From: an uncultured Planctomycetia bacterium
GTDB taxonomy: Bacteria; Omnitrophota; Gorgyraeia; Tantalellales; Tantalellaceae
Length of the DNA: 64,000 nucleotides
Assembly: GCA_964572255.1 (NCBI GenBank)
Contig: CAZNEE010000002.1
Span: 210,942-274,941 of the forward strand
Direction of reading: 5' to 3'
The notes beneath the pieces are model-generated. The model was not told the origin of the DNA. It did not search any database and worked only from the letters and a program-made list of their open reading frames with translations. The translations under genes were made by a program, and so were the position numbers. Below, piece after piece: positions 5,225-64,000 of the stretch. The stretch's first letter is position 1, and each line of letters starts with the position of its first letter.

Positions 5225-5231
5225 AGGCGGT

Positions 5232-6827: not shown

Positions 6828-6883
6828 GCTTGTCACTCCTTGCTCCGGTCTGTCTCCAAAAAAGAAGTTCTGGACCTGAATGC

Positions 6884-16727: not shown

Positions 16728-18527
16728 TTACGACACTCTCATTACTTTCAAAAATGCCTCCTTCGGAACGTCCACTTTGCCGATCCTGCGCATTTTTTTC
16801 TTTCCCTCTTTTTGTTTTTCCCACAATTTACGTTTTCTTGTTATATCACCGCCGTAACATTTGCCGGTAACGTGTTTCTTGAGCGCCGAAATGTTCTCCC
16901 GCGCAATAACCTCGCCGCCTACAGATGCCTGCACGGCTATCTTGAAAAGATGTTTAGGTATCGATTCTTTCAGCTTAGCCGCCAATTCTCTTCCGCGTTC
17001 CCTGGCCTTGCTTTTATGTATCAAAGTCGAAAGCGCGTCGCAGGATACGCCGTTAATAAGAACGTCCAATTTAACTATATCCGACTTTCTGTACCCTATA
17101 AACTCATAGTCAAGTGAGCCGTAACCCTGCGTGCAGGATTTTATCTTATCGTAAAAATCGATAACGATCTCCGCTAAAGGGATATTATAGGCGATCTGGA
17201 CCTTTGTGGGATCAAGATATTTGGTACTGATAAACTCTCCCCGCTTGTTTTCGCAAAGTTTCATTATGGCGCCGATACTTTCGGAAGGCGCAAAAACATA
17301 ACACCTGACATACGGCTCTTCCGCGTACTCTATCCTTTCTTTGGCAGGATATTTTGTCGGGTTATCTATCTCCTGCAGGTCTCCGTGGATCTCTTTTACC
17401 ATATACGTCACACTCGGCGATGAAACTATCAAGTCCAGATCGAATTCGCGTTCCAGGCGTTCCTGTACGATCTCCATGTGCAGGAGCCCCAGGAAACCGC
17501 ACCTGAACCCGAACCCTAATGCCGCGGAAATTTCCGGCTCATACGTAAAGGAAGAATCCGAGAGCCTGAGCTTTTCCATTGCGCTCTTGAGGTCTTCGTA
17601 GTCTTCATTTGTCACAGGATATACACCGCTGAAAACCATCGGTTTTACTTTTTTATAACCCGGAAGAGGTGCTGTCGCGGGCCTTTCCAGATCTGTTATA
17701 GTATCACCCACGACTACTTCTCTTGCGTCTTTGATATTGCATACGATGTATCCGACTTCACCGCAATCTAACTTATCAACGGCCTGTTCTTTGGGCGTGA
17801 ATATACCGACTTCCTTAACTTCGTACTTTGTGCCCCTGTTCATCATTTCAACTCCCATGCCGGCATGAATAGACCCGTTCATGATACGCACGTAAATTAT
17901 CACGCCGCGATATATATCATAAGAAGAGTCGAAGATAAGAGCCTGGAGAGGTTCTTTCTCCTCTCCTGCAGGAGGTGAGATCCTCTTCACTATCGCCTCG
18001 AGAACATCATCGGTGCCTGTCCCTTCTTTCGCGCTTGCAAGAATAATATCCTCTTCCTTCACCCCAAGGACTTCCTTCATCTGTTTTGTGATCTCGTCTA
18101 TCCTTGCGCTTTTAAGGTCTACCTTGTTTATAACAGGTATTATCAAAAGATCATGTTCCATCGCCAAATACAGATTGGCAACAGTCTGCGCCTCAACGCC
18201 CTGAACGGCATCTACCAAAAGTATCGCGCCCTCGCAGGCCGCGATGCTTTTGGATACTTCATAAGAAAAATCAACATGCCCGGGAGTATCGATAAGATTA
18301 AGAAAATAGGTGCTCCCGTCTTTGGCTTTGTATTTGATCTTTACCGCGCTGGATTTTATGGTTATACCGCGTTCTCTTTCCAGGTCCATGCTGTCCAGAA
18401 GCTGGTCATGGAACTCCCTTGCTGACACCGCCCCGGTACGCTGGATCATCCTGTCAGCTAATGTGGATTTTCCGTGGTCTATATGCGCGATTATGCAGAA
18501 GTTTCGTATTTGTTTCAGTTTATTCAT
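16728..18527 (-). CDS. lepA: Translation elongation factor 4 (LepA)
   Basis: IRNFCIIAHIDHGKSTLADRM...DTPGHVDF...NKVD G-domain and the LepA-specific C-terminal domain; 599 aa. Confidence 0.95.
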   Translation of the reverse strand: MNKLKQIRNFCIIAHIDHGKSTLADRMIQRTGAVSAREFHDQLLDSMDLERERGITIKSSAVKIKYKAKDGSTYFLNLIDTPGHVDFSYEVSKSIAACEGAILLVDAVQGVEAQTVANLYLAMEHDLLIIPVINKVDLKSARIDEITKQMKEVLGVKEEDIILASAKEGTGTDDVLEAIVKRISPPAGEEKEPLQALIFDSSYDIYRGVIIYVRIMNGSIHAGMGVEMMNRGTKYEVKEVGIFTPKEQAVDKLDCGEVGYIVCNIKDAREVVVGDTITDLERPATAPLPGYKKVKPMVFSGVYPVTNEDYEDLKSAMEKLRLSDSSFTYEPEISAALGFGFRCGFLGLLHMEIVQERLEREFDLDLIVSSPSVTYMVKEIHGDLQEIDNPTKYPAKERIEYAEEPYVRCYVFAPSESIGAIMKLCENKRGEFISTKYLDPTKVQIAYNIPLAEIVIDFYDKIKSCTQGYGSLDYEFIGYRKSDIVKLDVLINGVSCDALSTLIHKSKARERGRELAAKLKESIPKHLFKIAVQASVGGEVIARENISALKKHVTGKCYGGDITRKRKLWEKQKEGKKKMRRIGKVDVPKEAFLKVMRVS

Positions 18528-42700: not shown

Positions 42701-45700
42701 TGGTTATAAACTAACTTTGCTTTTGCGGCTCTTTTTTCTATGGAAGTGGGCCTGGTGCCGAGGGAATCAAGGATTGATAAAGGATCCTCCCCGCTAAGCG
42801 GCGGACTTAAGTCGGTTGCTCTATATATTATCACTCCTTTATCCGTAACGCTTCTTTCAGCGAACCCAAGGTAAACCAATGTTCCCAGATCGCGTTTCAC
42901 CACATCAAGTGAAAGATGCCCATCGGCCGCTCTTCCCTTTGTCTTCTTCCTGATCGAATCTGCGGACACCCGCCTGTCCTTGAAATTTTTCTGCATGATG
43001 TTGTAGATCCCAAGCGGCGACCCGTCGGGTTTAGCCGGGTCTTTTTCGCCATCAGAAGATGACGCATCGTCGCTTTCTTTTGCCAAAGCGCCGAGTATTT
43101 TATCCTTCTCCGGATAATTTGCCGCATCAAGCAGGATCAAAGCAAGTTTTTGATCCTTATGTCCGAATACCGCGCTGATAATGGCTTTCTTGACTTCATG
43201 CCATTCGCCGGCACTGGCATGTTCTATGACAGCCGCGCTTAAAGAGCCTTCCGGGAAGATATGCCACTTGATCTGGTCGGCCATTTCATTGACGATGTCC
43301 TGAAATTCCTTGTATGCCGCGGGGTTATTTCTGAAATATTCCTTGAGCTGTCTCATCAGCTGATGGACTTTTCCCAATGAAGATCCGTTAGAGGTATATT
43401 GAAGCCCCGCGCCTGTCTCAGGGAACAGATTGGGAATGTCTTCCCTGCTGATCCTGAACCTATTTATCAAAAATTTCATGATCCTGCTCTTATTGTCCAG
43501 GTATATCTTCTTCAATCCTTCATCCATTACGCCGTATTCTTCAAGCAGGCCTGCTACACCCGTTACCAAGAGAAAGTTCCTCTCAATATCAAGCTCAAAA
43601 AGGTTTACTTCCCGCTCCATGAGAAAACTTTTATCATCCGAATACGAAACTATCAGTGAAGCGAACACGCTGTGAAAAAAACTTGTCTGCGCGCCTTTCC
43701 TTGGACCGTCCAGGATCTTTCCGGTCCAGGCATCTACGCCCGGCCTTCTGGCTACCCCCGGAAAAAGCGCCGCCTTTGAATCGACATTTTTATAGTCCGC
43801 CACGGACGGAACGATACGCAATTTATGCGGAAGAAAACAGAAAAAAAGACAAACCGATAAAAATGAGGCTTCCTTCAGGTAATCGCCGTCAAAATTCAAT
43901 GTATAATCGTACTGGTGTTTTATTATCCCCATCCGGAACAATTTATTCACCATCAGTGAGAATATGGGATAAACGGTCGGGGGCACCTTGAGGAAGTAAT
44001 CCCTTCTTCCCTTAAACCCGGATTTATCCATCGCATGCTCTGTTTTTACATTGGAGAAATAATTGGTCAGGATCACCCCCTCTATCGCATCTTCAAAAAT
44101 GATCCCTGCCCTGCCCACCTTGACCTGCATGTCCATCCCCATGGCGGGATACTGCCTTGAGATGCTTTCGACCGCTCTTAAGGCCGGGATGACTTCATTC
44201 CGGATCTGCTCCATGAATTCACCGGTAGCCGTATGATTTATCACTTCGTCAAAAATAAGCAGTTTAATATAAGCTTGCGTTCCCGAGGCCAGGCCTTCCA
44301 GGTCCAGATCTTCAAAGATCTCATTTGTCCTGATGAACTCTTCGGCATATTCTTCGTATATTTTTCCGATTATTAAAACAGCGTCTTTGCGTTCATCGGA
44401 ATTCATCAGTTCCGAAAGTATGTCGCGAAGCACCCTGTACACGTTTAAAGGATAGACATTTCTCTTGTTTAAAAGGCTTATTGCCAGGCTCAAGACTGAC
44501 TGCTGTTTGATCTTGCCTTCAAATTCCGAAAGGATCTCGGCCAGGTTGTCGATATCCCTTCTCGTGCCGTACGAATCGATCAATCCGTGGGTCGCGGCGG
44601 TTTTATCCGGCGGACTTACGATCCTGTCGATCAACCCTTTTTTGATGCGAATAAACCCTTCCAGAACATCTTCTATCGCCAATAGCCGGTCGTGCCTGTT
44701 TGATTGCCTTTGTATTATTTCCCTGAAAAACCTTTTATCGTTAATATCGACAAGTTCCGCCTCTTTGGTCTTGGTCGGAAATTGACGGAATATTTTCCGT
44801 AATGTCTGAAAAGCGTATGACGGATAGATGCCCGCTCCCGCCAGCGCTATTCCCGTCGCGAACACCATCTCGCGCACTTCGGGATCGGAAACATCTTCCA
44901 GCAGGTCATAAAGCGTTTCAAACGCCCAAGACAGATCCATATCTTTTTCGACTAATGCCTTGGCGAATTCGTAGACATAATAACGCGGATAAAGCGAACC
45001 GATCACCCTGGATGTTTTTTTCGACTGAAAAGATCTTTTGGCCAGCGCCAGCAATTCATCTTCTTTCTTCTCTTCGGTTTTCACCCTGTAAGGGCCCAAA
45101 CGATCCTCATCAAGCCATTCGACCTTTACCCTGAATCCGGCCAAAGGATTGTCTGTCTTTTTTAACGAAACGGTATTGGCTCTTTCCGATATGAATTCAA
45201 ATCCATTTGCCGCGAAAAGCCGGCCGAACCCCGTATCCTCGAATTTGACGCCTTCCGCAAGGCTTTTTACCGTCAGATCATGCCTTACCCTGAACGTGAC
45301 CGTGGCGCCGTACGGGATATAACTTGATATGAATTCATTTATCGCCAGGGCCACCGTATCACCTTCAAAATTTTTTCCCAAACATTTCAGGTAAATCCTG
45401 ATATATTCTTCGTCATCTTCGAGCTGAAGCTTTTCAGCTTCCCTTAAGATCAATTCCACCTGTTTTCCATGCACACTATCGTTCTCCACAAGGCGATTAT
45501 AATATCCGTATAATGCGTCGTAAAAAGGCAGCATTCTGCTTATGAACCCGCCTTTTCGGTATTTTTCAAAATCCCCTATTAACTCGGGATAATTCAAAGT
45601 GCCGCCCCAGCCCAATATGAATAAATTATCCTCGGCGATCTGCATTTCCAGGAAACCCGCCAGGATACTCCTGCCGCTGAAGGTATCCTCGAAATAGACC

Positions 45701-47842: not shown

Positions 47843-50800
47843 TTACGCGTTGGTCTTTAAGTACTCCGCTATCGCCATGTATTCTACCGTCCCGGCTGTG
47901 ATCTGCTCGGCATCCGGAATACCTAATTTAATAGTTATAATGCCTCCCGTTTTGCACCTGTTCGCAGTTTCATCCCAGCATAAAGCAAGCAGTTCATCCG
48001 CACTTAGCCGGCTCATGTCTATATTAGGAATCGATCGATAAAACTCCGCTAACTCTTCCTTATCGAATTCCAATAGCCTGTACCGCGCCAGTGAGAATAG
48101 AACGATCTCTAACAATGGATAATAAGAATCCATTCCCAGATCTTTATCATTAATTTTTGTTATGACAGAATCCGTATACGGCTTTAGACACTCGAATTCT
48201 TCATCAAGCGCTATAACTATCAGATCTTCATTCTTTACATGTTTTTGGTCTTTCATGTAATCGAGTGTCATTTCGGTGATATCGCCGGTATGGATCACGA
48301 TATTCTCCAGCCATTCCTTTAAGAGCGGGTCTTCGCTGCGCATAAGGTCGCTTAAAGCTTTCCTCACCTCATCCGCTCTTCCGTTGCCCAATCTTTTATC
48401 AATTAAAATACCGACTCTTTCCTTCTTCTGGTAAACCGCACTTTTTACCTTGGCCGCTAAGTCCTCTCCTTCCGCAATAGATCCCGGAGATATCCTTGAA
48501 CTGGCTATGAACATGCTGTTCGTAAGCCGGGGAACGGCTTTTCTTATGCTGTCCATGATCAGGTCTTTATCTGATCTTTCAATATCCGTAACTTCTTCTT
48601 CGATCAGTTCTTCAAAAGTTCCGTCAGGATGACTTATGAATATCCTGTCCCTGCCGTTCACCTTAGCTCTGTACAGGGCCTTATCGGCTCTTGTTACAAT
48701 GGGATCGATCGCTTCCTGTTCCATCTTGTTAAGCAAACTACTGTTCGCATTTTTTTCTTCCTCCGTTTCAAATGAACTTTCTTTTTCTTCTTTCTCCCTG
48801 ATCCCTCTTATAAAACTTTCCTTCTCCTTGTCCGTAAGCTGGGCTATACCCATACTCCATGAAATATCAATATCCCTGACTATTTCCTTTCCTTCTTCAT
48901 CAACAGTTGTTCCCTGGATCTCAATACTGCGTACGGTATTCAATATTTTTTCCGCCGCTTTTTTGACTTTGTCCAATTCATCAAATATTATTATCAGAAA
49001 TTCCTCTCCGCCGTATCTTATGAAGAAATCGGTCCCTCTTTTAAGCTCATCATCAACTACTGACGCGATCGCCTGGAGCACCTCATCCCCCTTGGGATGT
49101 CCGTATGTATCGTTCACGCCTTTAAAATGATCGATATCGCACATGATAGCGCACATCGGGGTGGGGTTCTGCGATCCCTTCTCTTCATCTCTTCGCTCGA
49201 AAGCGCGTATATAGCCCGGGATCTCATTAATAAGGTATCTTCTGTTATGCAGATCGGTCAATTCGTCTCTGAGAGTTTCTTCTTCTAATCTGCGGCTCTT
49301 TTCCTCAAGCTTTTTCTGCAGCTGTTTTAGCTCGGTAATATCAGTGAAAACTCCCAGCACGCCGTTTCCCAGACGCTCTTTACTTACCTGTACATGAATG
49401 GTTTCTCCCTCTCTTACGTTTGTCTCTTCCACGGATATGGCTGTATTATTCTGATAAACTCTCAAGTCATCGGCTTCATATTTTTCAGCATCATAAGATT
49501 TCCCTAGTTCAAATTTGTCTCTGATCTCGATATCGGTTAACCCCTCGACCTTTTGAGTTTCCGGATCCAGCCCCAACATGCTGTAAAACCTGGAATTCGC
49601 ATATTTCACGCGCATTTTTCTGCCGTCAAATTCTTTATAGAACACAGCCGCGGGTAAATTTTCCAGCATTGCGCCTATATACTCTTCTCCCTTTTTTATC
49701 TCCTCCATCGCCTGGATCAATTTTGTTATATCTCTAAATGATGTCAGGACTATAGTTTTGCCGTCCTTTATTATCGTGTCATCGGTTTTTGCATAGATGA
49801 TGGTGCCGTCTTTCTTTACATATCTTCTGCCTTCTTCCCTTTGCGGAACATCTTCCCCCCTTAGACGCGCTTCAAAACGTCTTCTCGCGTCTTCAACCTC
49901 ATCGGTATGCATAAAATCAAAGATCTCTTTGCCGATAATCTCATCCTCATCATATCCCATCAATTCACACCAATATCTGTTAACCTGCTTGATTATGCCT
50001 TTTTTTCTGCCGTCTTCTTCTGTAACCTCTAACACGTGGAACCCGATCGGGGAATTATCATAGAACTCTTTATATTGTTTTTCGGAAGCCATAAGCTCTC
50101 TATTTACTTCATCGAGATCTCTTGCTGCGGATCTTAATTTGTTCAGGACCCTCTGGCCGAGAACGCCTGCTATTACAAAAACAATTAAACACGCCGCCCG
50201 CAACGCAAGATTGTATATATCCGTTAAAGGAAGTAATCCCTCAAGGATATCTCCCTTATAAAAGAGATATGCGTCCCCGATAGACCTAACAGCCCAGTAC
50301 AATGCTCCAAAAATAATAGCGGCATATTTAATGCTTGATACTTTAGGCACCGCCCCTATCTCCGTAAACTGCCTTTTGTCGGAAACAAAACGCCCCTTAA
50401 CCTCTATGCCTTTTATAAGCCTCGTGAACGCTTCGTTGCCTTCTTCGGATTTTCTGTCCTGCAAACCATGTGTAAGTTTTTGGCCGCCAAAACCAAGAAC
50501 TATCTCGTTGTACTCAATAAGATTGAATTCAGATTTGTTAAGTCTTTCCGGAGGAAGATTCTTTTTAAGATAGGATATGAACTCGGCCGCTGTATAGTGT
50601 TTCCCCAGTTTCTTTTTTGCCTCATGGGCCAACAGCCTTACGCTGCTGCCGGCACCTCTTAAGAATTGATGAGGGTGAATGTCGAATTTTACCAGATCAC
50701 CATATTCATCTATCATATCGAAAGATTCCGGCACATGATATTTTTTAAGATAATCGATAATATCGTCGGCTTCACTATCCGGATCCAGATCGCCCTCTAT

Positions 50801-53800
50801 TTTTGCTTTTTTGACTGATTCTGACAGGCGGGAATAGAACTGTTCTCTCTCTTCATGGAAAAGCGCATGTTGGTTCTCAGATAAGGATTGTATCAGATAC
50901 ACTTTCTCGCTATTAGCAAACCCTCGTATATTCTCATTGTCCTCCAATATTTTTATTTTTTCTCCGCCTGATGCCGCCAGATCCGTTTCTATTATTTTCA
51001 CTCTTGCCTCTCGGCCGTCTTTTGTATAAAGCGGCTCGCCAACAGCATTATAAAAAGCAAGAATGGTCCCCTCTTCTTCCTCTTTTCCTATGATCCCTTC
51101 GGTTATCTGATCCGCTGCTTCCTTATCGCGGAAAAGTTTTCCTATCAGGCCTCCCGTTTCTTCATCCGGGGCCGGCCGCTTTGATAAAACATTTTTCTTC
51201 GCAGCTCTATCCTTGAACCAGTCAATAAGCACTTTTATGCCGGAGATCGGCCATAAGAGCGCGATCGGAAGGAGAATGGCCACAGAAGCAACAAAGGCAA
51301 TAAAAGGATTGGATTTTACATAATCCGCAATACCCGCATACTCTATAATATATTCAAAAACTTCGGCCGAAGTATCGGGCGCGAACCAGCATATGGCAGC
51401 GCTGATGATCATCCCCAAAGTCGCGGCCATGAAATGCCTTCTGTTAAGCATTTTTCTGTACTTCTGCACGTATTCCTCTTTATACGCGTTGGTCTCTCTG
51501 CCCTCCGCCAGATTTCCGATATCTTCCGCTAATTCTTCGGCTGAATAACGCTCTCTTGGGTTCAATTTCAGGCACTTCATTATAACGGCCTGGAGGTTAA
51601 GGCTGATCTTGCTGTTTATTTCTTTGGGAAGTTTCGGAGGATCGAATTTAAGCATGATAAAATCATCCGTAAGTTCGTTCGCGAAAGGTTTTTCGCCCGT
51701 AGCCATCTCATAAAGAAGTATTCCCAACGAGAAGATGTCCACCTTGTATTCTTCCGCGGGTTCTTCCCTGTAATCAATGTACGGAATACCGTGTTTATGC
51801 AGGAATTTGATTATCCGCCTCTTGTAAGACTCATCGGATTCCATGGGTTTTTCGGTCACTGCGAGCGTGACCGACTGTTCGGGCGAGGCATATTCCGGAG
51901 TTCCCAAAAATATATTCTCCATCGTGTCCCTTATGGACCCCGTCTTCTTTATGTCATACCCCCTTGCCGCCAGACCCAGGTCGGCAATGAGCGGCTGATA
52001 CTCGGTAGCTGTATTCAATGCGGCAACCCGTCTCATCAGGACGTTCATCGGCTTCAGGTCCCTGTGGATGATACCCAACGAATGCATATAAGCGATCGAA
52101 TCCGCTATATGCCTGAACAGGCCCACGACCTCTCTCTCGTCATATTTCCTGTACTTAAGACTCTCGATATAATCCCCGAGGGTCGGGCCTTCGATCATTT
52201 CCATGGAATAGAAGGGAATGTTGTGTTTCTTGCGGTCATATACATCGTGTACTTTGATGATCCCTTTATGCGACAGCTCTCTCATATACCTTATCTCTCT
52301 CAGGAACCTTTCCCTCTGCCTCTGGCCGCCCTGTTTCATGACTTTAAGGGCTATGGTCCTGCCCATTTCCCTGTCAAAAACAAGAAAAACGGAACACATG
52401 CCCCCGCTGCCGATCTCCTTGATGATTTCATATCTGTCCTCAAAGACGTCCCCGCTTTTCAGGCCCGTGTTTATATACGCGTTATCCAGTTTTGAAGAGG
52501 ATGCGCTGTCGGGGATCTCCTTCTCCTGAAAAGCCGCAAATAAGGTCCCTCCCAAAACAGTTTTATCGCTGAGATAAGATTTGGACGAGATGTTCTTAAA
52601 TAATTCCAATACTGATCCCTGGCGCGCGTAATCGAGTATTCCCCTTCTTCTTATCGTGCACCAATCCAAAAGCCTCTTCTCGTTCTCCGTCGGCCTTGGC
52701 TTATTTTTCAGCCTTGCGATGTCCAGCTTTAATATATCGTCCATGATCAATATATTGCAGGCATGGGCTTCCTTGTCCACCCATACCTTGTTGAAATCGA
52801 TCGCATTCCCGAGGAACAAGATCGACTCATGCGGAAGCGTTATAAGTCTCGAAAGAAGTTCTTCTCTCCCTTTAATATCATGTCCTGCAGCGGCGTGTTC
52901 CAGCTGTTTCGCGCCGAAAATATTTATCTTAACCTTGAGCGGGTCGTATCCAAGATCCGGGAATATCTTCTTTACGGTTTCCCTGTCAAGTTCATAAGAT
53001 GCAAATTCCCTCTCCCCGTCCGCAATAACGTCTATCTGGAGATCATCCGCCGACCTATCAAGCCAGAAATAACTGCCGGAAGTATAGACCCTGAATGCCT
53101 CTTCATTATTTATCAGTTCATTTTCGATCAGGCGCGGGATAACAACCTCTTCTATTCCCTCTGCCATATATCCTATTCTGTCCTCTACATCCTTCAGGGA
53201 CAAAGGTTCAGTGTTCTGTCCTCTTTTATTTGAGAATTCCACAAGACGCAGCCAGTTTTCCATAGAACCCGATTTATCCGCAGCTTTGAGGCTGTCCATT
53301 ATCGCTGTGCGCGGCCATGATGTCACAACTCTTTGCTCTTGAGGGTCTACCCCCAATCTGTACGGCTTATGATACTTGCCTAAGAGAATATCGGGGCCGT
53401 TGAGGACATATCTTAATGCTTTTTGAAGTTCACCTTTATATAAGGTGTTGGGTTTTTTCGGGTCCTGGATCTGGTCATCCCTGTCGGGATAATTCTCGCG
53501 GAAATGGTCCTGAAGAAGAACGATCGTTCTGTAATGGCCCAGGATGGAACAAAGGATCTCATGAAGCAGGTATTCGTCTACCAAGGGATGTGTGTCGTTT
53601 TCCGGCGGGCCGCGCTGCTTTAATTTGGAAATTACATCTGTTGCCACGTAAAGCTCGTTATCGTCTTTAAGATGATCTCCGTTGCCCAGCATAAAATCAT
53701 TCTCGGCTTTGACGATAATGGAATCAAACCCGTATATCTTGATCTGTTCCTTTCTTTGTTCCGCTAAAAATCCCGCCAATTTCTCTCTTTTATAGTCCGG

Positions 53801-56800
53801 GATCTTGATACCGTTTTCCCGCAGGAACTCGTCCAGATTTGAGCTGTCCTTTCTGTTTCTCTTGAACTGCCTGAAAAATTCAATAAACCTCCCTATCTTA
53901 TCCTTGGGCAGTTTTATCTCATTTCCCTGAAGGAACGCGGTCAACATCCTTTCCTCGTCCTTCTTGTTCTTTAAGAGGTCCCTGATCCTCTTGATCTCGC
54001 TTATCTCGCCTTCGGTCAGCCTCTTCACCCGCTTAGAGCGGTAGCCTTCATGCGCCATCTTCTCTTCCTTGTCCAGGAAGGATTCAAGGAGCTGAAGTAT
54101 CCGGTCGTTATAATCGTCCGTGACATCGTTCTTTCTGATCCTTTCACGTTCCCGATCGAATATATTCTTTGAAGCTTTTCCCTGGCTGATAAAACCGTCC
54201 GGAGTTGTTTTTGAAACTTCGAAAATGGTCACCGTTATCTTGTTCCCCCTAACTTCACTGTCAAAGGTTTCTTCCTTGCCATGCGAAAATCTCATTCCGT
54301 CTCTCCAGCTTTCCACCAATAAAGTTACATCCTTATAATCTTTAGCGATACGGCTGAGCCTCAATAGAAATATCCCCCTTAATTCGACAGGGATAGATAT
54401 TTCCGATAATATTTTTTCAGATTCGGTATTGCGCAGTATGCCGCCGTTGAATATCCTGTAAAGTTCCATTTTAGACGGACCTTCGTCTTCAGATATTATC
54501 CGTATGCCCGGCCTGGAATCTGACCTTCTTCTGACCGCCTGGAGTTTTATTGAAAAATCAACATCCTTATGATTGCCCCACACATGATCACGCAAATTCT
54601 TATTTAGCTCATAGATCACATGCCGGGCAAGTTCCTCCCTGTTTGTGGGAGTTCTTTTGACACTGAAAAATATCTCGTATTCTGTTTTAAAGCTTTCTTT
54701 CTCTTCGAAATCAAACTTCGAAATAAACTTTTTTAATTCACCAAAAGAGTCCTGATCATTATTTACCATGTTCTCTTTACTTAATGTAAATGTTTCAAGA
54801 ATTTCTATATCCTCCCCCTCATCTTGTTTCTCTTTATCCTGAGGCTGTTCTTTTGGTTTTGACTTTTTCTTTAAGATCCATACTGCGATTAAAAACCCTA
54901 TGATCGGCAATAAGAACCCGGCATCGAAATTGACCTTTTGACCCCCCATGAAACAGCCGCCTGAATGATGTGAATGGTCACCTTCGCCCGGAGCTTTGCC
55001 CACATGGACAGTCCCGGGATAATATGAATAATCTCCGTCAGTCTGCCCGTCAGGCATCTCTGTCCTGATAGCCAGATCATAATTTCCCGAATACATGTCA
55101 GACGGAATGTTTATGATGATCGAGGATGTCGATACGCCCGGCACAAAGAATTCTTCCGATCCTATCATGATCGTGTAGCCGTCGGCTGAACCCTGCAGGG
55201 ATCCGGTGTATGGATCCCAGGTAAGCTCAAAAGTCCTGTCATTGTTGCTGGCTGTGACGCTTGTGATCTCGGGCGAGAAAGGCCTCGCATCCGTTGACTC
55301 CGCCCAATGCCGGATAGAATCAGCATTAGCATCAGATATTATAAAGCCCATATCATCCTGCCAGAAAAGCCCGCCATCCACTCCGCTGGCGTATATTGCG
55401 GAATATTTATCCCCAAAATTTGTAGGCTCAAGTTCTCCAAAAATGACCGGCCCGTCAAGCGACGAACCCCAGTTCGTCAAAGGATCCGCTATCGGGAACC
55501 AAACCTCCATATAATCATAATAATGCGGCTGGTAAAGATCCAGGCCCAGATCGGTCCAGTTGTCCATGAGCGTTTCCCTGTTCCTCGCGCCCACTGTGAC
55601 CACTGACCCCGGATCCTGATTATGTATCATCTGAACATGCAGATCCAGAAATCCGTGCACTTGCGCCATCGTCAGAGATGTCAATTCCGGTATCTCTTCG
55701 GGTTCGCTCATCACGTCCCAGGCGACTATTTCCGGACGGTCCGCGTAATCATTGACGAATTGTGCCATTAAGGCAAGTATTGCGTTGATCTTCGCGGGTT
55801 CACTTATTATGTCCGGATGTTCTCCCACAGGATTAGGGCCTTCCATGTCGATGCCGTCCGCGATCAAATAATCGTATAATACCGGCATCAATCTTATACC
55901 CAGAACATTGGCGGCTTCGATCAGGGTATCCATGTCTTCATAAACATGGGCGCTAAAGCCCGTAGGTGTACCTGTTCCGTCAAAAACTATTCCGCTTCTT
56001 AGATCACAGAATAAAAACACTCTCACAGTACAGCCCTTGAAACGATTAAGCTCCTGCAGGAGCAGTTCTCTTCTGGTAGCTAAACCTACATAATCCTCGC
56101 CATTGGCCCCGTCCCCGATATCGTAGCCGTATTCTATCCACAGGTTCGCTCCGCGGGCAAAATCAGAACCGGGCGTTAAGTTCTCGATGATCTGCTGAAC
56201 ATGATCGATCCTTTCAAGCCTTCCGTCAGTGTGATAAATAAGGGTTTCGGTCAGATCCCAGGAAGCGTCATATTCAAATGTACGGACCGTTCCGTCCTCC
56301 AAACGTTCGGTATTCAGATACATCCTCCCGTTAGCTAGATGGTAAGAAGCGCCTGCCTTATTGGTGTATTTCCTTATCGCAAACCCCGGCGTAGCTGTCT
56401 CCTGTACGACCGTTTCATGCACAAATGTCGGATCTCCCCCCGCATCATATCCCCTGATAAAGTGAATAATATCCGTGCCCGCGTAATATTCAGGTTCCTC
56501 GTAACTGCCATCAGGCCATGTTATCCTGTCGATCCTGCCGGACGTTCCGTTGCCGTAGAAATCAAAATCCTCTCTATGCACCACTGTATCAGCCAGGTAG
56601 TCATCCAGCTCATAATCAGGCGTATCGTGGTCCCAATCCTCCAAATATGTCTCTGTTTCGATAAAGCCGGACGGTGAATAGTACGTGTAATCGACCTCCG
56701 CGGCCGCAAGGACCTTGAACGGAAATAAAAGGAAAAGTACGGTGACGAGAAGCATTTTCGTGCCCGAATTCCTGAATGCCCTAAAGACCGCCTTAAAAAT

Positions 56801-59800
56801 GTTCCCTATCAATCGAAATGTCTTGGAAACTGATCTTGATAAAATCCCTGTAACCTTAAATACAAAGACCGCCGGGTAATACCATTTGAACAGGAAAATC
56901 TTATTGGCGAACATGGTCGTTGTGCGGATCTTTCCGTCCGGCTTCTCTATCGGAAATACGCATATATCGTTCGCAATGATCTCTATTGCCGCGTTGACCC
57001 TTATGTATTCCTTGGTTTTCCTGTCCTTGAACATATTCGCGTTGATCGCAAAATTCCATTTCCTGTATTTCCTTTGAATATCATCCTTTTTGAACGGATC
57101 AGGCTCCTCCAGCCACTCCTTGAGATATCTTTTGGCGGCGAATATCCTGCGTATAAGCCTTATATTGGGAATTAAAAGGATCAACGCCCCCACTCCTATT
57201 ATAAAGAGGAAAGATGAAAGCATGGACCACGCACCCGAACCTGCAATTAAAAACGGCGCTGAAAATAAATATCTATAATTCATCTTATTGAGCCTCGCCA
57301 TCTGCTTAAGGACCTTTTCATCCTTCTCATCCAGCGAATAATCTGCGGCCAGGGCTTTTATTAATTCCCTTTTCTCGCTTTGTTTAAGGTTCGCAAAATT
57401 TCCTTTATCTTTAAATCCTTCCATGACAGCATAAGTCTCATTTTTCAGCGTGCCTTTGCGCGCTATATACTCGAAATCGACCGTATCGATTATAAGTAAC
57501 AGGTCCTGCGCGGCTTTGAATAAAGGATTAGTGATAGGTTCTTTTGAAGTGGGTTCTTTCTTTGTCGTTTCTAAAAAGACTGCCATGAAAAAAGGAGCAA
57601 AATATCTGTAATAGTCGGGTGATCCCCTGACTATGTTTGCTTTTGCTTCGAAATCTTCATATGTTGAATTAAATGCCTGCATCTTGGCATCGCTGCCGCC
57701 TTTTCCTTTCGATCTTAGGTCAAGGTATCTGTCCCTGTAATCCGCCATGAGTTTGGATAATCCTTGCGCGTCTTCACACTTCCTCTTTATATAGTGCGCA
57801 AACGCAAGAGCCTGATCTTTGCTCTCCCGGGCTATCCTTTTATTCGGATGATTGATCTTATTCAGATGTTCCGGCATGCCCAGAGCGGCCTGCCTGACCT
57901 TTCTGAACTCGGGCTCTCTGACCCAGTAGGAATATGCTATCGCCTGGGCCGCGCCAGAGACGGTTATCCTTCCGGCCTTTTTCAATGTTATGAAAGGCCT
58001 GTTCGTGATCCAGCGTTCGTTGTTCTCGATCGCTTTTATCATGTCTTCAGCCAACCGCTTGAATTCCCTGTTTCTGCGATCGGTGCTCTCCCTCAATTCT
58101 TTTCTTACAAATTTAGAGTCATTATTGCGTATGCTTCCTGCCGCTTCCTGTCTTTCTCTGAGAAGTTCACCGGCATGTTTTAACACTCTTTTCGCTTTTT
58201 CTGCCAATCCTATTTCAAGTAATTCGCAGGCGGCTTTGATATATATGATCGCGAGCACCTTGACCTTTAAAGGCGATCTCTCGAGATCCTCTATGCATGA
58301 CTTTAAAGTGTTTACAAATCTTCTTTCAGTCTTTCTTCTTAATCTGACCTGCTCTCTTAAGTCCTGCATGCCGGGCAGGAAGGTATGTTTAGCTTCTTCC
58401 CGGGACTTCTTCTCTCTTTTGTCTATATACTCGGTTATCTCGGAGATCTTTTCCCTTATTCTCGGAATATTTATTTTTTCTTCATCTAATTCATAATCGA
58501 TCCTTTCGTCATACCCCCTGTAGACCTGCCATAAAAGAAAGTATCTCGCTCCCTGGTGTCCCGGATGAGCGTATCTTCGCCCGTCCTTAGGATAATATTT
58601 TTGAAAAATGTAAAAGGGCGACCATCCCTTCCAGATCTTCTTGCCGTCTTTTGCCTCATCAAAAACCCTTTTAGGGAGCCTGATCTTCTTCAGCCTTCGG
58701 GGCCTTGCTATCCTTTTCTTAAGAAGGGCAACCTGTTCGCCGGCTATCCTGTTAAGAATATCTCTGACCTTCTTATACGCTTTTGAATCTTCGTAGTTCT
58801 TTAGGTCTTCCGCCTCTTCGACCAGTTTTACCACTTCATCAAAATCCGCTTTTATCAATTTAGCGAAAGCGGGTATTCTTGCAACCGGCTGGTTTTTCTC
58901 TTTCTTTCTGTCCGTTTTTACATCCCCGGCAATTTCGTCAATATCTTGCTTCGCTGAAGCTGTCGCTTCCTTTACTTCTTCTAATAATTCCCCCAATCTC
59001 TTTTCATGTTTTCTGATCCGTCCCTGCAGATACTCTTCACGATATCTTTCATGCTTGATCCTCCATTTCAGAAGTCTTATTTTCTTCTGCAGTTCGATCC
59101 TTTCTGAGATCTTCACGTAAAGTTGGGTATGATACTCAAAGATCGTGATGAATAGATCGTTGTCTACCGGTTCTTCCCTATATAATCTTTCCATGTAGTT
59201 ATAGGGGATTTCTCTTTTTAGCTGTTCGCTTGAGACAGGAGGTTCTGACCTCCCGTAATTATTTTCATTCGCTGCATTGTTCCCCCCGGCGAAAAATTGG
59301 CATATAATAAAGAGGAAGGATAGAACAAGGGCGGGTATCATAAACCTGCCCACCGCACCTTCAGGCAAAGAACCGCTAGTAAATATTGAAGCGGCAAAAA
59401 CTGTTAAAAATCCCAAAACTCCTATGTAACTAAAACCTTTATCGGCTCTTTGCTGCTCTATTTTTTCTTCAATATTCCTTATATAAGGCTCCAATTCGGG
59501 AGCGATATCCCCTCCCAGGCTGACTATAAAATTACGTAAATGGCTCTCCAGCTTTTCTCCCGAATATTTCGGCAGTTCTTCCAAGAGGGCGATCCTGAAA
59601 TTGATATAACTCTTATGAACCACCCGTGTTATTTCCGCCATGAAAGCGGCTATCCTGTCTTTTTTCACATCATCCAAAGGCGTGCTTTTCAGAAGATCCC
59701 TGAATGCCTTGATCAATTTTTTCTCTTTTTCCGGGGACGGAAGGGTTTTGTTCGTCTTCTCTATATCGTCGTAAAAAGACTTCCATTCGGGGCCCAGTTC

Positions 59801-62800
59801 CACAAAAATTCTCTCCCTTTTACCTAACTGAAGCTCTACATCTTCCGACTCTTCTATCTTCTCTATCTTTGGCTTCTCTGATATTTTTTCTGCCGGTTCG
59901 GATTTTTCATCTTCTTCTTTCTTTATGTCTTCGATCATTATATTGAGGCGTTCTCGGATAACTTCTATCCACTCAATGGATTCCTCTTCCAACCCATCAA
60001 ATCGGGAAACCGTTCTATCGAAAACTTTTCTAAACCCTTTAAGGATATTTTTAAATTCAGGATCGGATTCCTGCAATCTTAAAAGAGTGTCCAATGCCAT
60101 ATCAGCTTGGCGTATCCATGCATCAAAATCCTTAACATCTCCGCCTGATAGCTCCTCCATCCGCGCTTTTGTATCATCCAGACTTTTACGGCTGTACCCG
60201 CCGATGCTGTCATAGAAAAAATTCATGAACAGCACGGTGATAATACTTGCTACAACAAACGATAATATTCCCGAAACAGTTATCTCCAGCATAGAATCAG
60301 CCATACCCAATAATGAAGCTATTGATCCGAGAAAAGAAGTTCCAAAAACCAGTAATGGCGTATGCACTATCCCTTTCTGTCCCCGCGCTTCGGGGTGCCC
60401 TCCCAAATCTTTCTCTGTACGAACTATCTCCTCATGCCTGATTACAATTTTCTTGGCAAAATTAGGATCTTGAAGTTTTCCCGTCAGCCAACCGTAAAAG
60501 CCTTTCATCTTGATACCGACATCAGCCAATTTAGTCTTTACATCGCTATCGATGCACCTCCCGTACTTCTCCAATGCTCTTTCTTCCTCAAGCAGGCCCA
60601 GCAATAACAACCTCTGTTTTTCCTTTCCTTGCTTGTCCTTATAAGCTGTATTATTGAATTTGTCGGTTTCCGTCTTGTGCCTATCTCTTATTTCGGGCAA
60701 ATAGAGATCTAGTAAAAATTTTCTTTCCGCAAAAAGGACCAGCAGGATCTTCGCCAAGGCGGACTTCCTGCTGGGATCGATCAATATCAACTGTTGATAT
60801 ACACTTACCTTTATATAAACATTCCCCGTATCCGCCTCTATGCATATTTTCTGCCCCGAAAAAGGCATGGTGGAATCTTCGCTGCAGATGAATATCCCTC
60901 TTTCACCCTTTTTATACTTTTCATCGCTTCGCATTTTTTCTATAAGTTGAATAGCGTCTTTAATAAACGCGAGCTGCCGCTCCAACTTATCGATCGCAAG
61001 CTTGTCTTTTTTCTCTTTCACTTTCAGAAATTCTATTTCCTCTTTTACTTCCGCAAATCCCTCGGAATTAAGGACTTCTTCGCGTAACTTATTCAAATAA
61101 GCGGGAGACAATCTTTCATCTAAAATAGTGCGCTTTTTTCCCTTAACAATAAGAGACTGAATTTCCTCGTCAAAATATGATTTCATTTGCCTTTCATAAT
61201 CATTTAAATCTCCAAAATAACGCAATACTTCAATATATTGCATTACCTTTTTCAGAATTGTAAGAAACTCTTCTTTGCCGATAGACTCGAAATCAACCTT
61301 GGTCATCTCTTCGATATCAGCCCCCCAATTATACTCTACTGCCGCTATCCCATTTTGGAGCAATTTGAACGGCTCCATTAAGGGCTCCAATTCTGTTTCT
61401 ATTTTTTCCTTTTCCCCTTCGAGGAATTTAACCACATCCTGTAAAGTTTTTTCGTCTACCTTTTCTATTTCGCCATCCTGTTTTTTATGATCCGCTATGC
61501 TAAGAGCCTCTAACAAATTAGTTCCCGCATTAGTGCCCGCAAAAAACCGGTACATAACAAACATAAGAGATAAAATAACAATGGGGACCATAAATCCGCC
61601 GCTAAACAGTGAAGCGGCAAGACCTGTCAGAAATACAGGAATCCCTATGAAGATAAACCCTTCATCGGATCTCTTTTTTCCTTTCTGTTCTCCTGCTGAG
61701 GATTCTTCCGCTTTTTTGATAGGCACGATCTTTACAACAGTCTCTACCCCTCCTCCCCAAAAATGTTTTTTAGTGATCTCGGTATCAATCCTATAGCCTA
61801 TTCTGCCCAAAGCCTCTTTTAAGATATTGAGAGTCCATATCGCGGCATCCCTCTCTCCTTGCTTTTCTATGTCTCGCAGGATCTTTTGGATGTCTTCGCC
61901 ATATTTTTTGGCATTATTGCCGAGTCTTGCGAATATTGCATAAATAGCTTCTTCCGTATGGCCCAGATATATGCCTGAGCGTAAAAAGCCGTTCCAGGAT
62001 TCAGCCCATACCTGGTCAAATTCTTTCTGATATTTAAAAATATTGTGTAAGCGCTGTTCATCCGGCGGGGCGAAAAGGATCTTATTCTTTTTCTTTTTAA
62101 ACAGGGTTAATAGAAGGTTTTCCGCATCATAGAAATTTCCGTATTTTCCCAGCATCTCAGCTGCAAACTTGAAAGCTTCATCGTTCCCATGCCCCATATG
62201 ATCCAGGGAAACCACAACCGTATCCCGTAAAGAGTTTCTTATCTTGGACCAGCCCATATTTGTTTTGGCATATTTTTTAACGATTTTTCTAACCGTTTCT
62301 TTGGCCACATGATCGTTTGCGCCTGTTAAGTTGAAAAGTAACGGATTGATCACATCCGGCCCTGATTTTGCCAACTTACCTATCTTTTCTTTATCGCTTA
62401 AAGAAGCGTCTTTAACGATATTTTCAGCGACCGTGATAAATTTCGATACTTCTTTAAACCTGTCTCTTATCTCCCTTTTACACATCTCGCCGTAAAGCAA
62501 TGTGAAAAAGAGGTCTTCATTGTTTTTCAAAACATCTTTCGCTGTCGTGTCCTTTTCGATCAAACTTACGACTCTTTTAAGGACTCTATTCCTTAACTCC
62601 TGGCCTAAACGAATCTTTTCCAGGTAATCATCATCTGGGACAGTTCCGCTTCTTTTAATTGTTCGTGCCAGGTTTGCAGCACTGGAATTGAAAGTTATGT
62701 CCAAAGATTTTAAATTTTTCAGGAATTTATCGATGATCTGGGCAATGATCTTGCTTTTATCCACCTTTTTCGAGTAAGCTATTATTCTCTCGGTTGCCAC

Positions 62801-63898
62801 GGATGACGGCAATTTTATCTTTGCCAATCCTTTTATAGCGCCGATATTCCCTTGCAACATCAGGATCGCTCCGGGCTTAAGGCCTGCTGCTTTTCCTTCC
62901 AGTTTCTCCTTGAGATCCAACTCCTCCTCGTCCATTTCTTCCGGAGGGGACATGTACGGCCAGAATATGAAAATAAGATCATATTCGGAAAAATCTTCAT
63001 CAAATATATCGCTGTCCTTATCCGCGATCTCAATATTTGATACATCAATTCCTCCTTTTCCCCCGATCTCTTTAACGCATCCTTCGCCCTCTTCTCGAAG
63101 CATATCGTTCAACTCGTAACATTTGACTTTTTTCGCATACTGTCCGAATATCAAAGCGGATTTTGCGTTACCCCCGTATCCTATCAGCACCTTACGGGCT
63201 CTTTTCGAGAGCCATTTAGCTATCATCTTTAGATGTGAAGTTTGAGGGCTTAAATATGCCCCCACTTTATCTCTTGTTTTAAAAAATGTCAGTCTTTTAG
63301 AATCCACCCCTTGTTTATAATATTTGCCTATAAGATCTATCGCTTCTTCCGGGGTGTTCGGAGCCGGATGATTCTCAAGGAAGAAATCCATCTCTTCCGA
63401 CGACAATCTGCTATGACGGCTTCTTGTAACCGTGAAAAATCTTCCTAAACTTTCCGCCTGTTCGGACGTAAGTTTTTTGTATTTACCCGTCAATTCATAA
63501 TAACCCGGGGTTTCACTGGATACATATTTAAGCATTCCTCTGCCTATAAGACTTTCCAGCCCGATGATCGTTGTTTTTCCCGTAATACTTTTTTGCAGTT
63601 TTTCTTCCATACTTTTTTTGAATTCGTAAAAATCTATCCGGCGATTCTTGAAGTATTCAAAATTCGACAAGATGAATTCAAATGTCTCATCCATGGCATC
63701 ATGCAGTCCCACAAGATAATTTTCGAATGCCGGAGTTAAAGCTTCTGCGGTATCCTCATCTATGTTCTCCTTATGGGAAAGGGTCTTTAACAAACTAAGC
63801 CATGATCCCACATCGGCTTTATGCCTTATGAATACATCCCTCAAATAAGGTCTTGGTTCGGTAAGGGCAGAGATCTGATCGGAAAGAGAAAAGACCAC
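47843..63898 (-). CDS. Giant mosaic multi-pass membrane protein (5351 aa): repeated 2-TM hairpin modules, long coiled-coil/charged regions, an exported segment with YD-repeat-like beta region + TIM-barrel glycoside-hydrolase-like domain + FN3-like domain, a Hanks-type Ser/Thr protein kinase, a periplasmic-sensor-like loop, and a C-terminal PAS-PAS-GGDEF (diguanylate cyclase) unit
   Basis: One uninterrupted 16056-nt ORF. The track start is a GTG at 63898 with an in-frame stop 21 codons upstream and no obvious Shine-Dalgarno, so the true start may be a downstream ATG. Diagnostic motifs: kinase IGSGGMCSV / ALKVMK / HRDLKPMNV / DLG / GTPEYASPE (~51850-52430); GGDEF [12 protein letters not shown] / [21 protein letters not shown] / RGTD...RYGGEEF (~48650-49270); hydrolase-like [12 protein letters not shown] and VIFGELEP (~55330-56060). 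Its stop lies 4 nt upstream of the next giant gene. Confidence 0.85.
   Translation of the reverse strand: [5351 protein letters not shown]
48650..49270 (-). other. GGDEF diguanylate cyclase domain with intact GGEEF active site and RxxD inhibitory site, containing a ~70-aa acidic insertion
   Basis: [54 protein letters not shown] (RxxD five residues before GGEEF), and the terminal [16 protein letters not shown]. Confidence 0.85.
49320..50090 (-). other. Tandem PAS domains downstream of a TM/sensor region
   Basis: [59 protein letters not shown]...KDGTIIYAK (PAS 1) and [41 protein letters not shown]...[13 protein letters not shown] (PAS 2). Confidence 0.7.
51850..52430 (-). other. Hanks-type (eukaryotic-like) Ser/Thr protein kinase catalytic domain within the 5351-aa protein
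   Basis: Glycine-rich loop [10 protein letters not shown], beta3 Lys in TIALKVMK, alphaC Glu in FLREIRYM, catalytic loop [12 protein letters not shown], DLG variant of DFG (IADLGLA) and APE-like GTPEYASPE. Confidence 0.85.
55000..55300 (-). other. Fibronectin type III-like beta-sandwich module following the hydrolase-like domain
   Basis: [76 protein letters not shown] has the FN3-like W/Y/L periodicity; it is followed by a TM helix ([15 protein letters not shown]) at ~54870-54930. Confidence 0.45.
55330..56060 (-). other. TIM-barrel glycoside-hydrolase-like domain (clan GH-A-like; candidate acid/base Glu in MSEPE and nucleophile Glu in FGELEP) in an exported segment of the 5351-aa protein
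   Basis: [17 protein letters not shown]...[19 protein letters not shown]...[21 protein letters not shown]...[26 protein letters not shown]...VIFGELEPT: the spacing of the conserved Asn/Glu-Pro and second Glu resembles GH5/GH113-type (beta/alpha)8 hydrolases. The family assignment is tentative. Confidence 0.45.
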
Positions 63899-64000
63899 TG
63901 TTTCAAGATACAGCGTTTTATTCAGCTCTTTAACTTTCCGTATTAAACGAAGATTGTGATTCAGCGCGTTAACGATAACTACTTCAAGAGGAAGTGTTAT

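Follow-up and report, generated by a model that had tools for sequence, protein, structure and literature searches.

A putative internal signal sequence and a predicted membrane-tethered GH5 module in a giant protein of an uncultured Omnitrophota bacterium

The window analyzed here, a 64,000-nt stretch of contig CAZNEE010000002.1 (assembly GCA_964572255.1, positions 210,942 to 274,941) from a bacterium that GTDB places in the phylum Omnitrophota, contains on its minus strand most of a giant open reading frame (ORF), which encodes a membrane protein of 6,377 amino acids (aa). In the middle of this protein lies a cassette (54866-56773, minus strand) composed of an internal helix, an acidic YD-like beta region, a glycoside hydrolase family 5 (GH5) barrel, an all-beta domain of about 95 aa and a stop-transfer helix, and these features are located at the places indicated by the original prediction, which was made from the DNA letters. 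The cassette is likely a GH5 module that was captured from an exported gene, is exported by Sec and stays tethered to the membrane, where it would bind, and probably cleave, a mannan-like glycan with beta linkages. The barrel has a GH5 fold with both catalytic glutamates, and the cassette recurs in other long proteins, where it is better conserved than its surroundings. Residues are numbered from the GTG codon at 63898 (aa 1), and the addition of 1026 gives the numbering of the full-length protein, P0253.

RESULTS

The cassette contains a GH5 barrel with both catalytic glutamates

The central domain of the cassette (55295-56170, minus strand; aa 2577-2868) is a (beta/alpha)8 barrel of family GH5, which belongs to clan GH-A. 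The comparison of the single window sequence against the PDB using phmmer detected the GH5 mannanases 4OOU (E = 3e-7) and 2C0H, and a profile built from seven homologues matched 5Y6T (3.4e-37) and 2C0H (1e-34), followed by 3VUP and 4OOU. These four best profile matches span 1e-28 to 3e-37, and the GH5_7-type fungal mannanases were matched at 1e-7 to 1e-10. The PF00150 family is present in many homologues of the cassette, and the similarity of the cassette features to known GH5 enzymes is far beyond chance. In an AlphaFold2 (AF2) model calculated from 125 sequences the barrel (residues 175-465 of the loop between the two helices) has a predicted local distance difference test (pLDDT) score above 90, and a Foldseek search with this barrel placed the same GH5_10 structures on top (3e-16). 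These data bear out the TIM barrel of GH5 type that had been proposed. The accompanying suggestion of a GH113-like domain was rejected, as no GH113 entry was present among the PDB matches listed for the profile and Foldseek searches.

The four structures, which are from Eisenia fetida (5Y6T), Mytilus edulis (2C0H), Aplysia (3VUP) and Cryptopygus (4OOU), we take to be GH5_10 enzymes as classified by CAZy. The membership of 2C0H in GH5_10 has been described (Aspeborg et al., PMC3526467). According to the same paper, no activity other than mannanase is known in this subfamily, none of its bacterial members has been characterised, and some GH5 modules are non-catalytic (PMC3526467). By these comparisons the barrel appears closest to the GH5_10 beta-mannanase type. 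It shares with the GH5_10 mannanases 5Y6T, 2C0H, 3VUP and 4OOU the Glu residues after beta4 and beta7 and the conserved Arg, His, Tyr and Trp residues, but it differs from them in its 19-24% identity, in having Ser instead of Asn ahead of the acid/base Glu, and in its location inside a 6,377-aa membrane protein between a signal sequence and a stop-transfer helix.

In clan GH-A the acid/base Glu follows strand beta4 and the nucleophile Glu follows strand beta7 (PMC7157763). Glu2732 (55703-55705, minus strand), the predicted general acid/base, is located directly past strand beta4 (strand E324-329 of the AF2 model ends one residue earlier) and is invariant in 125/125 aligned homologues. Glu2822 (55433-55435, minus strand), the predicted nucleophile, is at the end of strand beta7, inside strand E416-421 of the model, and is a Glu in 124/125 homologues, the remaining row being a gap in a truncated sequence. 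Hence, both catalytic Glu residues, which the original prediction had named as a check, are present. The residues R2626, H2792, Y2794 and W2846 are also conserved among the aligned homologues.

The motif that had been read as NEP-type is in fact SEP in the window. Ser2731 (codon AGC, 55706-55708, minus strand) takes the place of the Asn ahead of the acid/base Glu; this position is an Asn in 124 of the 125 aligned homologues, and the AGC codon is one transition away from AAC. The same Ser-Glu pair occurs in P0308, P0325 and P0329, and because these three are stand-alone proteins and not the nearest relatives of the window protein, the change from Asn to Ser has recurred and looks like a tolerated variant. 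Within the giant-protein clade the Asn is lost only in the window member. Since Ser retains a hydroxyl group, reduced or retuned catalysis is expected rather than its loss, and the substitution probably weakens or retunes catalysis without abolishing binding. Three other family members, P0327 (Asn-Asp, with Ala at the nucleophile position), P0347 (Ser-Gln) and P0378 (Ala-Asn), look catalytically dead.

The cassette starts with a helix resembling a signal peptide

The internal signal sequence (56699-56773, minus strand; aa 2376-2400) lies 3,401 residues from the N-terminus of the 6,377-aa protein and not at the N-terminus itself. By inspection, it consists of an n-region RNSGTK, an h-region MLLVTVLFLLF, a Pro followed by Phe, and a c-region KVLAAA, with a putative signal peptidase I site between A2400 and E2401. 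Its hydrophobic helix MLLVTVLFLLFPFKVLAAA (aa 2382-2400; nt 56699-56755) is the segment that had been likened to a cleavable signal peptide, and this description agrees with the n/h/c layout seen in eight embedded cassettes. All eight have a basic n-region and small residues at positions -3 and -1, while a Pro upstream of the site is present in 7/8 and a strict A-x-A in 6/8. The helix ends, with the predicted site marked by a slash, are LFPFKVLAAA/E in the window protein (P0253), LIPFSAWA/A in P0254, MFPVLVYA/A in P0255, LPPRAWA/A in P0256, SSFA/S in P0257, MPFKSAQA/Q in P0258, APAKSAGA/Q in P0260 and APAKSAQA/Q in P0261. The pattern P..AxA was found in 6/8 cassette helices (6/15 in a looser set) versus 11/193 other transmembrane (TM) helices of the same proteins.

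The sequence after the helix also resembles that of exported proteins. In P0253-P0256 the motif YTYY(S)PSG is located 3-6 residues past the predicted site, and in the stand-alone proteins P0003 and P0004 a YTYY motif follows a true signal peptide (AEA/AIIRTYYPNGRL). The sequence past the internal helix of the window protein (EVDYTYYSPSGF) aligns with the mature N-termini of both these proteins. A cut by signal peptidase I after the AAA of the c-region, at A2400/E2401, is quite possible on this evidence, although we lean slightly against it.

An internal translation start at M2382 was rejected as a general mechanism. Met is not conserved at the helix start, and four of the seven nearest relatives lack it there. 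No Shine-Dalgarno sequence was found at a suitable distance from such a start either, the sole AGGA being 18 nt upstream versus -9 to -12 in the window genes. For these reasons the helix, if anything, would be an internal start-transfer sequence rather than the start of a separate gene.

The charges around the two helices point to an outward orientation

The topology was judged from Kyte-Doolittle hydropathy and counts of Lys and Arg residues. The 15 residues before the first helix contain four Lys/Arg and no acidic residue, and the 15 residues after it contain no Lys/Arg and three Asp/Glu. The second helix has one Lys/Arg before it and five after it, and the charges obey the positive-inside rule at both helices. 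The loop between them (aa 2401-2993; nt 54920-56698) contains 101 Asp and Glu versus 31 Lys and Arg residues. There is no hydrophobic segment between the second helix and a downstream Ser/Thr kinase domain, and a kinase requires cytoplasmic ATP. The sampled stand-alone relatives bear N-terminal signal peptides or lipoboxes. From the charge bias, the ATP-dependent kinase downstream and the exported homologues, we infer that the cassette is outside the cytoplasmic membrane, which supports the earlier suggestion that the giant protein threads it outward.

The region upstream of the cassette is less easily oriented. The N-terminus of P0253 is a signal-peptide-like helix ending IVWA/YP, and the xWA/YP sequence is kept in P0255, P0256, P0257, P0260 and in the orthologue L003. 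The parity of TM segments counted from this N-terminal helix is compatible with the cassette being outside in P0253, P0256, P0260 and L003. The same count would also put much of the N-terminal region outside, which would be odd for the HD domain of L003, and the 2,381 aa ahead of the cassette in the window may not be cytoplasmic. Four upstream pairs of hydrophobic segments look like hairpins. Three TM hairpins were located at 61553-61660, ~60203-60355 and 59288-59437 (aa 747-782, 1182-1232 and 1488-1537), and two of these three, EGFIFIGIPVFLTGLAASLFSGG... and KGFSYIGVLGFLTVFAASIFTSG..., are clearly alike in sequence, which suggests that this part of the giant protein holds a repeated membrane-hairpin module.

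The barrel is flanked by a YD-like region and an anchored all-beta domain

The exported part begins (56204-56692, minus strand) with an acidic linker of ~75 aa with low pLDDT, which is followed by nine beta strands with the degenerate YD-like motifs GRIDRITWPDGSYEEPEYY and FEYDASWDL...DGRLERI. The AF2 model placed nine consecutive strands at loop residues 77-163, with pLDDT of 60-88, and the sequence TFEYDASWDLTETLIYHTDGRLERI, named in the original prediction, was located at aa 2540-2564. YD-like motifs are visible by eye in this stretch, but the Pfam family RHS_repeat (PF05593) did not match the window segment. The YD-like region ahead of the barrel of the stand-alone P0003 aligns to the window segment, with the residue register unchecked. 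RHS_repeat scored residues 247-294 of P0003 at 19 bits (E = 0.0018), which is below the cutoff of 22, and it scored P0002 at 29.7 bits (E = 8e-7), but at a location after the barrel of P0002.

Between the barrel and the membrane there is an all-beta spacer domain of ~95 aa (54995-55282, minus strand; aa 2873-2968), which starts with PFSPEITSV and resembles fibronectin type III (FN3) or Ig domains. The Pfam family fn3 (PF00041) fell short of its cutoff of 25 with 15.3 bits (E = 0.023), and the match to the L003 orthologue was also sub-threshold (19.5 bits, E = 0.0012). The hhalign comparison with 10Fn3 gave a weak alignment in FN3 register (E = 0.045). The models of this domain contained 6-7 strands with pLDDT of 50-77 (52 for the single-sequence AF2 model), and Foldseek with the low-confidence model gave no informative match. 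Hence, the all-beta fold of the predicted FN3-like domain is apparent, while its FN3-like identity is unproven.

The cassette ends with the stop-transfer TM helix GFLLPIIGFLIAVWIL (54866-54919, minus strand; aa 2994-3011; Kyte-Doolittle 2.24), which is followed by KKKSKPK. This is the TM helix, GFLLPIIGFLIAVWILKK, that had been predicted after the FN3-like domain. A GGC motif (54953-54961, minus strand; aa 2980-2982) is located 12 aa upstream of the helix. The motif GG(S)C (GCCC in L003) is kept 8-14 aa ahead of the helix and basic cluster in all seven cassettes having that helix, its counterparts being in P0254-P0256, P0260, P0261 and L003. The arrangement of GG(S)C, TM helix and basic residues resembles the Cys/TM/Arg sorting tags. 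The window tag had no match to the MYXO-CTERM-type tags (TIGR03901 / TIGR03382) and is internal rather than C-terminal. The tag of P0261 was matched to MYXO-CTERM over nearly its full length, at 13.7 bits (E = 0.06), below the cutoff of 20. Since all MYXO-CTERM and JDVT matches stayed below threshold and came from two relatives, with none in the window itself, the assignment of a known sorting tag to the second helix was rejected. None of the stand-alone family members ends in such a C-terminal tag.

The cassette recurs in diverged long proteins and is related to exported proteins

A word-indexed search found few close relatives, while an exhaustive HMMER search found 791 family members at E <= 1e-3; the detailed counts cover 144 family representatives. 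The representative P0001, an Omnitrophota fragment, is collinear with the window over the upstream region, the helix and the barrel. The closest genomic relative, L003 (CAZGQR010000009.1, a GTDB genome contig), has the same sequence as L004 (Ga0180432_10000093, a JGI metagenome). Its cassette is 55% identical, is embedded in an open frame that extends over at least 5,348 codons, and keeps the flanking helices, an intact NEP motif and the FN3-like domain. In the giant protein of L003 the cassette is preceded by an HD domain and followed by GNAT and HopA1-like domains. The L003 record is labelled 'uncultured Planctomycetia bacterium', although the giant protein encoded there has its N-terminal helix, cassette and further segments in common with proteins of Omnitrophota; the label may reflect mis-binning or mislabelling.

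The whole cassette is also present in P0254 (1,745 aa), P0255 (4,986 aa) and P0256 (3,508 aa), where it matched at 58-64% identity in the exhaustive search. In a comparison with the other shared pieces, the identity to the window cassette was 54-57%, as compared to 23-38% for those pieces, which are partly rearranged and, for P0255 and P0256, include both termini. Shorter versions of the cassette are present in P0257 (5,101 aa), P0258, P0260 and P0261, and the barrel is also present in P0358 (7,255 aa) and P0374 (7,866 aa). Among the 144 representatives, 60 are at least 1,000 aa long and 23 at least 2,000 aa. Other long members have only an N-terminal helix; two of them contain FG-GAP repeats and a subtilase domain, and one also Laminin_G_3, so that they resemble large secreted proteins. 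As the best-conserved part amid variable surroundings, the cassette can be regarded as the conserved core of a modular giant-protein family. The kinase, PAS and GGDEF domains of the window protein are not shared with the cassette-bearing relatives compared (P0254-P0256 and L003), and a conserved coupling of cassette and kinase was not found among the relatives. In P0255 (residues 2045-2164) and P0256 (2170-2280) a histidine-kinase-type HATPase_c domain is located ~180-210 aa past the cassette anchor, which is a sensor-kinase layout.

The search for stand-alone glycanase homologues, which had been recommended, found them as exported proteins with YD-like regions and a GH5 barrel. Two of them, P0003 and P0004, are 700-770 aa long and consist of an N-terminal signal peptide, YD-like repeats and the barrel. 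The proteins P0003, P0004, P0057 and P0002 are like the window cassette in belonging to the same GH5 subclade with the ELEPT and GGLFWQD motifs, in having a YD-like region before the barrel, and in the xYTYYPxG motif of the mature N-terminus, which comes after a signal peptide. They differ in being 500-800 aa long, with the signal peptide at the N-terminus and no membrane anchor. The stand-alone relatives also have YD repeats after the barrel, versus the FN3-like domain and TM helix in the window, and their identity is ~30-40%. In a neighbor-joining (NJ) tree without support values, the window protein, L003 and P0001 formed one clade, with P0002 and P0057 as sisters, followed further out by P0003 and P0004 and then by lipoprotein-type GH5 enzymes. 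The capture of an exported YD+GH5 gene into a giant protein is supported by the nesting of this clade in exported YD+GH5 proteins and by the alignment of the sequence after the helix to the mature N-termini of P0003 and P0004, and the tree would fit a single capture. This agrees with the proposed fusion with an exported glycanase gene, which had been put forward as an alternative to threading of the cassette outward; the two are not mutually exclusive. Near the stand-alone P0004, locus L001 contains an RtcB RNA ligase gene with an intein (4084-7062; Intein_splicing match inside RtcB).

The giant protein continues with signaling domains and is surrounded by housekeeping genes

The giant ORF (47843-64000, minus strand) is uninterrupted from 64000 down to its stop codon at 47843-47845 and covers the C-terminal 5,385 codons of P0253. 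The nucleotides 63899-64000 are stop-free in this frame, and the 5,351-aa ORF as originally listed is therefore truncated by the window. The gene call on the 498,635-bp contig k141_130128 of ENA ERZ27256770 gave 6,377 aa, and the C-terminus of P0253, a library representative, is identical to the window translation. Thus, the ORF previously described as 16 kb long extends past the window end. For the neighboring RecA, every named best match was from Omnitrophota, with 75-84% identity.

A Hanks-type Ser/Thr kinase domain (51479-52432, minus strand; Pfam Pkinase E = 6e-45) is located ~810 aa past the anchor and has intact HRDLKPMN, DLG and TPEYASPE motifs. It was matched by Pfam in two stretches, with an apparent ~60-aa insert after TPEYASPE (~51700-52000; aa ~4010-4075). 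Farther downstream are two PAS domains and a GGDEF domain whose signature motif reads GGEEF (48818-50089, minus strand; Pfam and NCBIfam). The interval between the anchor and the kinase contains no recognisable transducer according to Pfam and had no PDB match. Upstream of the cassette, the 2,381 aa of the window part had no Pfam, NCBIfam or PDB match, and a Pfam scan of the first 1,100 aa of P0253 found nothing. Hence, the proposal that the cassette is embedded between cytoplasmic signaling regions fits its downstream side, with the kinase and GGDEF domains, while its upstream side has no recognisable signaling domain.

A second large gene (39724-47838, minus strand; 2,704 aa), which has DHDPS and HATPase_c matches, begins 4 nt past the giant stop codon, and the C-terminal ~140 aa of its product resemble the C-terminal region of the giant protein (26% identity, E = 3e-5). 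The gene of signal peptidase I, lepB (Peptidase_S26; 16117-16713, minus strand), is in the window and adjoins lepA (16728-18527, minus strand). The remaining window genes are housekeeping ones, for His, Trp, Thr and Leu biosynthesis, tRNA synthetases, RecA and lipid synthesis. ARAGORN and Rfam identified one RNA gene only in the window, a tRNA-Pro (anticodon GGG) at 11717-11795 (minus strand).

DISCUSSION

The data are best explained by a GH5 module that is likely exported by Sec, tethered to the membrane and acquired from an exported gene. The internal Sec-type signal sequence (aa 2376-2400) would start the translocation of ~590 residues, and the stop-transfer helix (aa 2994-3011 and KKKSKPK) would bring the chain back to the cytoplasm, where it would be followed by ~810 aa of no assigned function, the Ser/Thr kinase, more membrane helices, two PAS domains and the GGDEF domain. 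The exported part would consist of the acidic linker, a short YD-like beta sheet, the GH5 barrel with both Glu residues and a small beta-sandwich spacer, and it would bind, and probably cleave by a retaining mechanism, a beta-linked glycan on the outer surface of the cytoplasmic membrane.

Several observations weigh against this explanation or against parts of it. The single window sequence had no Pfam or NCBIfam match in the cassette, including PF00150, and the mannan-like substrate is suggested by the nearest solved structures alone, at 19-24% identity. Hydropathy and Lys/Arg counts are crude measures of topology, and for the N-terminal 3,400 aa the topology is equivocal. The original prediction had also considered a possible action on the envelope of another cell. 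In a diderm cell a tether to the inner membrane at both ends would keep the domain in the periplasm, off a prey surface, unless it were released. No glycan-use, secretion or pilus genes were found among the window neighbors scanned or annotated, all of which are housekeeping genes. The enrichment of the P..AxA pattern in the cassette helices (Fisher p = 4e-4 for 6/15 versus 11/193) was calculated for a pattern picked post hoc. Asn ahead of the acid/base Glu is the norm in the family, as 134 of the 144 representatives have Asn-Glu and four have Ser-Glu, the others including a few apparently dead variants. The substitution of this Asn by Ala abolished the activity of BuGH158, another clan GH-A enzyme (PMC7157763), and therefore the window copy may be a poor enzyme.

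The latter consideration leads to the explanation that the barrel is a weakened pseudo-enzyme ectodomain, which senses a glycan and signals via the TM helix to the kinase and then to the PAS-GGDEF part, involving cyclic di-GMP. The order of ectodomain, TM helix and kinase fits such a role, and also that of a receptor-type Hanks kinase; the HRD/DLG and GGEEF motifs are intact, and within the giant clade the window protein alone has lost the Asn beside the acid/base. There is a precedent in the transmembrane anti-sigma factors RsgI of Clostridium thermocellum and its kin, in which GH10 and GH5 modules serve as sensory elements (PMC6852018). The window protein is similar to RsgI in having an external GH-family module, a TM link and a cytoplasmic signaling part, but RsgI differs in its anti-sigma rather than kinase/GGDEF output, in organism and envelope, and in being single-pass; the likeness is one of layout. 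The comparison with receptor kinases is weakened by the ~810-aa spacer between anchor and kinase, which has no recognisable transducer, and by the pairing not being kept, since the kinase, PAS and GGDEF domains are not shared by the compared relatives that have the cassette. The HATPase_c domains ~180-210 aa past the anchor in P0255 and P0256 would favor a sensor, but HATPase_c is among the commonest domains of Omnitrophota long proteins (10.64898/2026.06.07.730766), hence its adjacency to the cassette may be due to chance. Because the catalytic Glu pair and the other conserved residues are intact, and the same Asn-to-Ser change is found in three stand-alone members, we consider a role as a mere sensor unlikely. 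A still less probable explanation, which we regard as very improbable, is that the cassette is an inert fusion relic or an artefact of mis-assembly or gene calling. The variable flanks of the cassette among relatives and the loss of the Asn in the window copy would fit a relic, but no other segment is as well conserved among the giant relatives as the cassette, and its catalytic Glu residues, signal-sequence features and anchor are all conserved. An artefact is at odds with the ORF being unbroken both in the window and in an independent genome, and with the occurrence of the neighboring gene on six contigs with similar surroundings.

The remaining explanation, in which the giant protein is cut by signal peptidase I and possibly a second time at the GG(S)C/TM/basic tag, is compatible with either an enzyme or a sensor function, and the likelihoods given here are not meant to add up to certainty. 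The GH5 module, alone or together with the C-terminal signaling half, would become a separate protein and may reach the cell surface. The signal-peptidase-I-type c-region is kept in eight diverged cassettes and enriched relative to other TM helices, the internal helix aligns by position with the true signal peptides of the stand-alone relatives, and GG(S)C precedes the anchor in 7/7 cassettes. The near-full-length, though sub-threshold, MYXO-CTERM match of the P0261 tag (E = 0.06) and the lepB gene in the window are also consistent with processing. Cutting at internal signal peptides occurs in the Bradyrhizobium FbcH cytochrome b/c1 precursor and in flavivirus polyproteins. These are like the window protein in that an exported domain comes after an internal n/h/c signal sequence whose -3/-1 residues are small, but they are unrelated in scale and biology, and the cleavage is putative here. 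In the literature library searched, no bacterial precedent of an internal signal peptide was found. The cleavage points of Omnitrophota giant proteins were called unknown by West-Roberts et al., who treat cleavage only via C39/S8 peptidase domains (10.1101/2023.11.21.568195). On the other hand, the tag of the window protein itself has no sorting-domain match, no stand-alone family member has such a C-terminal tag, and the small-x-small motif could persist for helix packing or by descent. Processing of this kind is therefore tentative, being possible but not the expected outcome. Its fuller version, in which the giant ORF encodes a polyprotein cut after A2400 (A3426 of the full-length protein) and the tag marks a second processing or lipidation step that frees the glycanase or anchors it at the surface, is more doubtful.

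The exported, tethered GH5 module favored here can be compared with what is already described. GH5 enzymes are well known, as are Omnitrophota giant proteins with carbohydrate-active parts. To our knowledge, there is no earlier description of a complete exported unit, including signal peptide, signal-peptidase-type site, GH5 domain, spacer, Cys motif and anchor, that is conserved inside a giant-protein family. Carbohydrate-active domains have been reported in or beside Omnitrophota giant proteins (10.1101/2023.11.21.568195; 10.64898/2026.06.07.730766), and the text of these two preprints, apart from the supplements, mentions neither GH5/PF00150 nor an internal signal peptide. The text of the 2026 preprint, likewise apart from its supplements, does not mention cleavage (10.64898/2026.06.07.730766). 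The window protein is like the described giant proteins in its phylum, its very long sequence with multiple TM segments, and its GGDEF and kinase-type modules. The giants of the 2023 study are at least 30,000 aa long, with many TM regions and, for the most part, a divergent SecA_DEAD domain (10.1101/2023.11.21.568195). The window protein, in contrast, is 6,377 aa long, and Pfam scans of the window part and the N-terminal 1,100 aa found no SecA_DEAD. It also differs from Omnitrophota giant proteins in having no secretion or pilus genes near its gene.

For the Omnitrophota giant proteins, neither topology nor processing is settled, nor even which side of the membrane they act on. The cassette offers a fixed point for the topology of a 6,377-aa protein, with an orientation argued from three independent lines of evidence. 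The site A2400/E2401 is specific enough to be searched for in metaproteomes as the semi-tryptic peptide EVDYTYYSPSGFIETETYLEDWDHDTPDYELDDYLADTVVHR, and the ~300-aa GH5 domain can be expressed and assayed on beta-glycans. The substitution of Asn by Ser provides a natural experiment on whether such modules drift from enzymes to sensors. More generally, the cassette is a recurring mobile building block of many long proteins, better conserved than what surrounds it. If the polyprotein explanation were true, a cleavage point of an Omnitrophota giant protein would for the first time be defined at the sequence level, at A2400/E2401, and such 'proteins' may be operon-like precursors.

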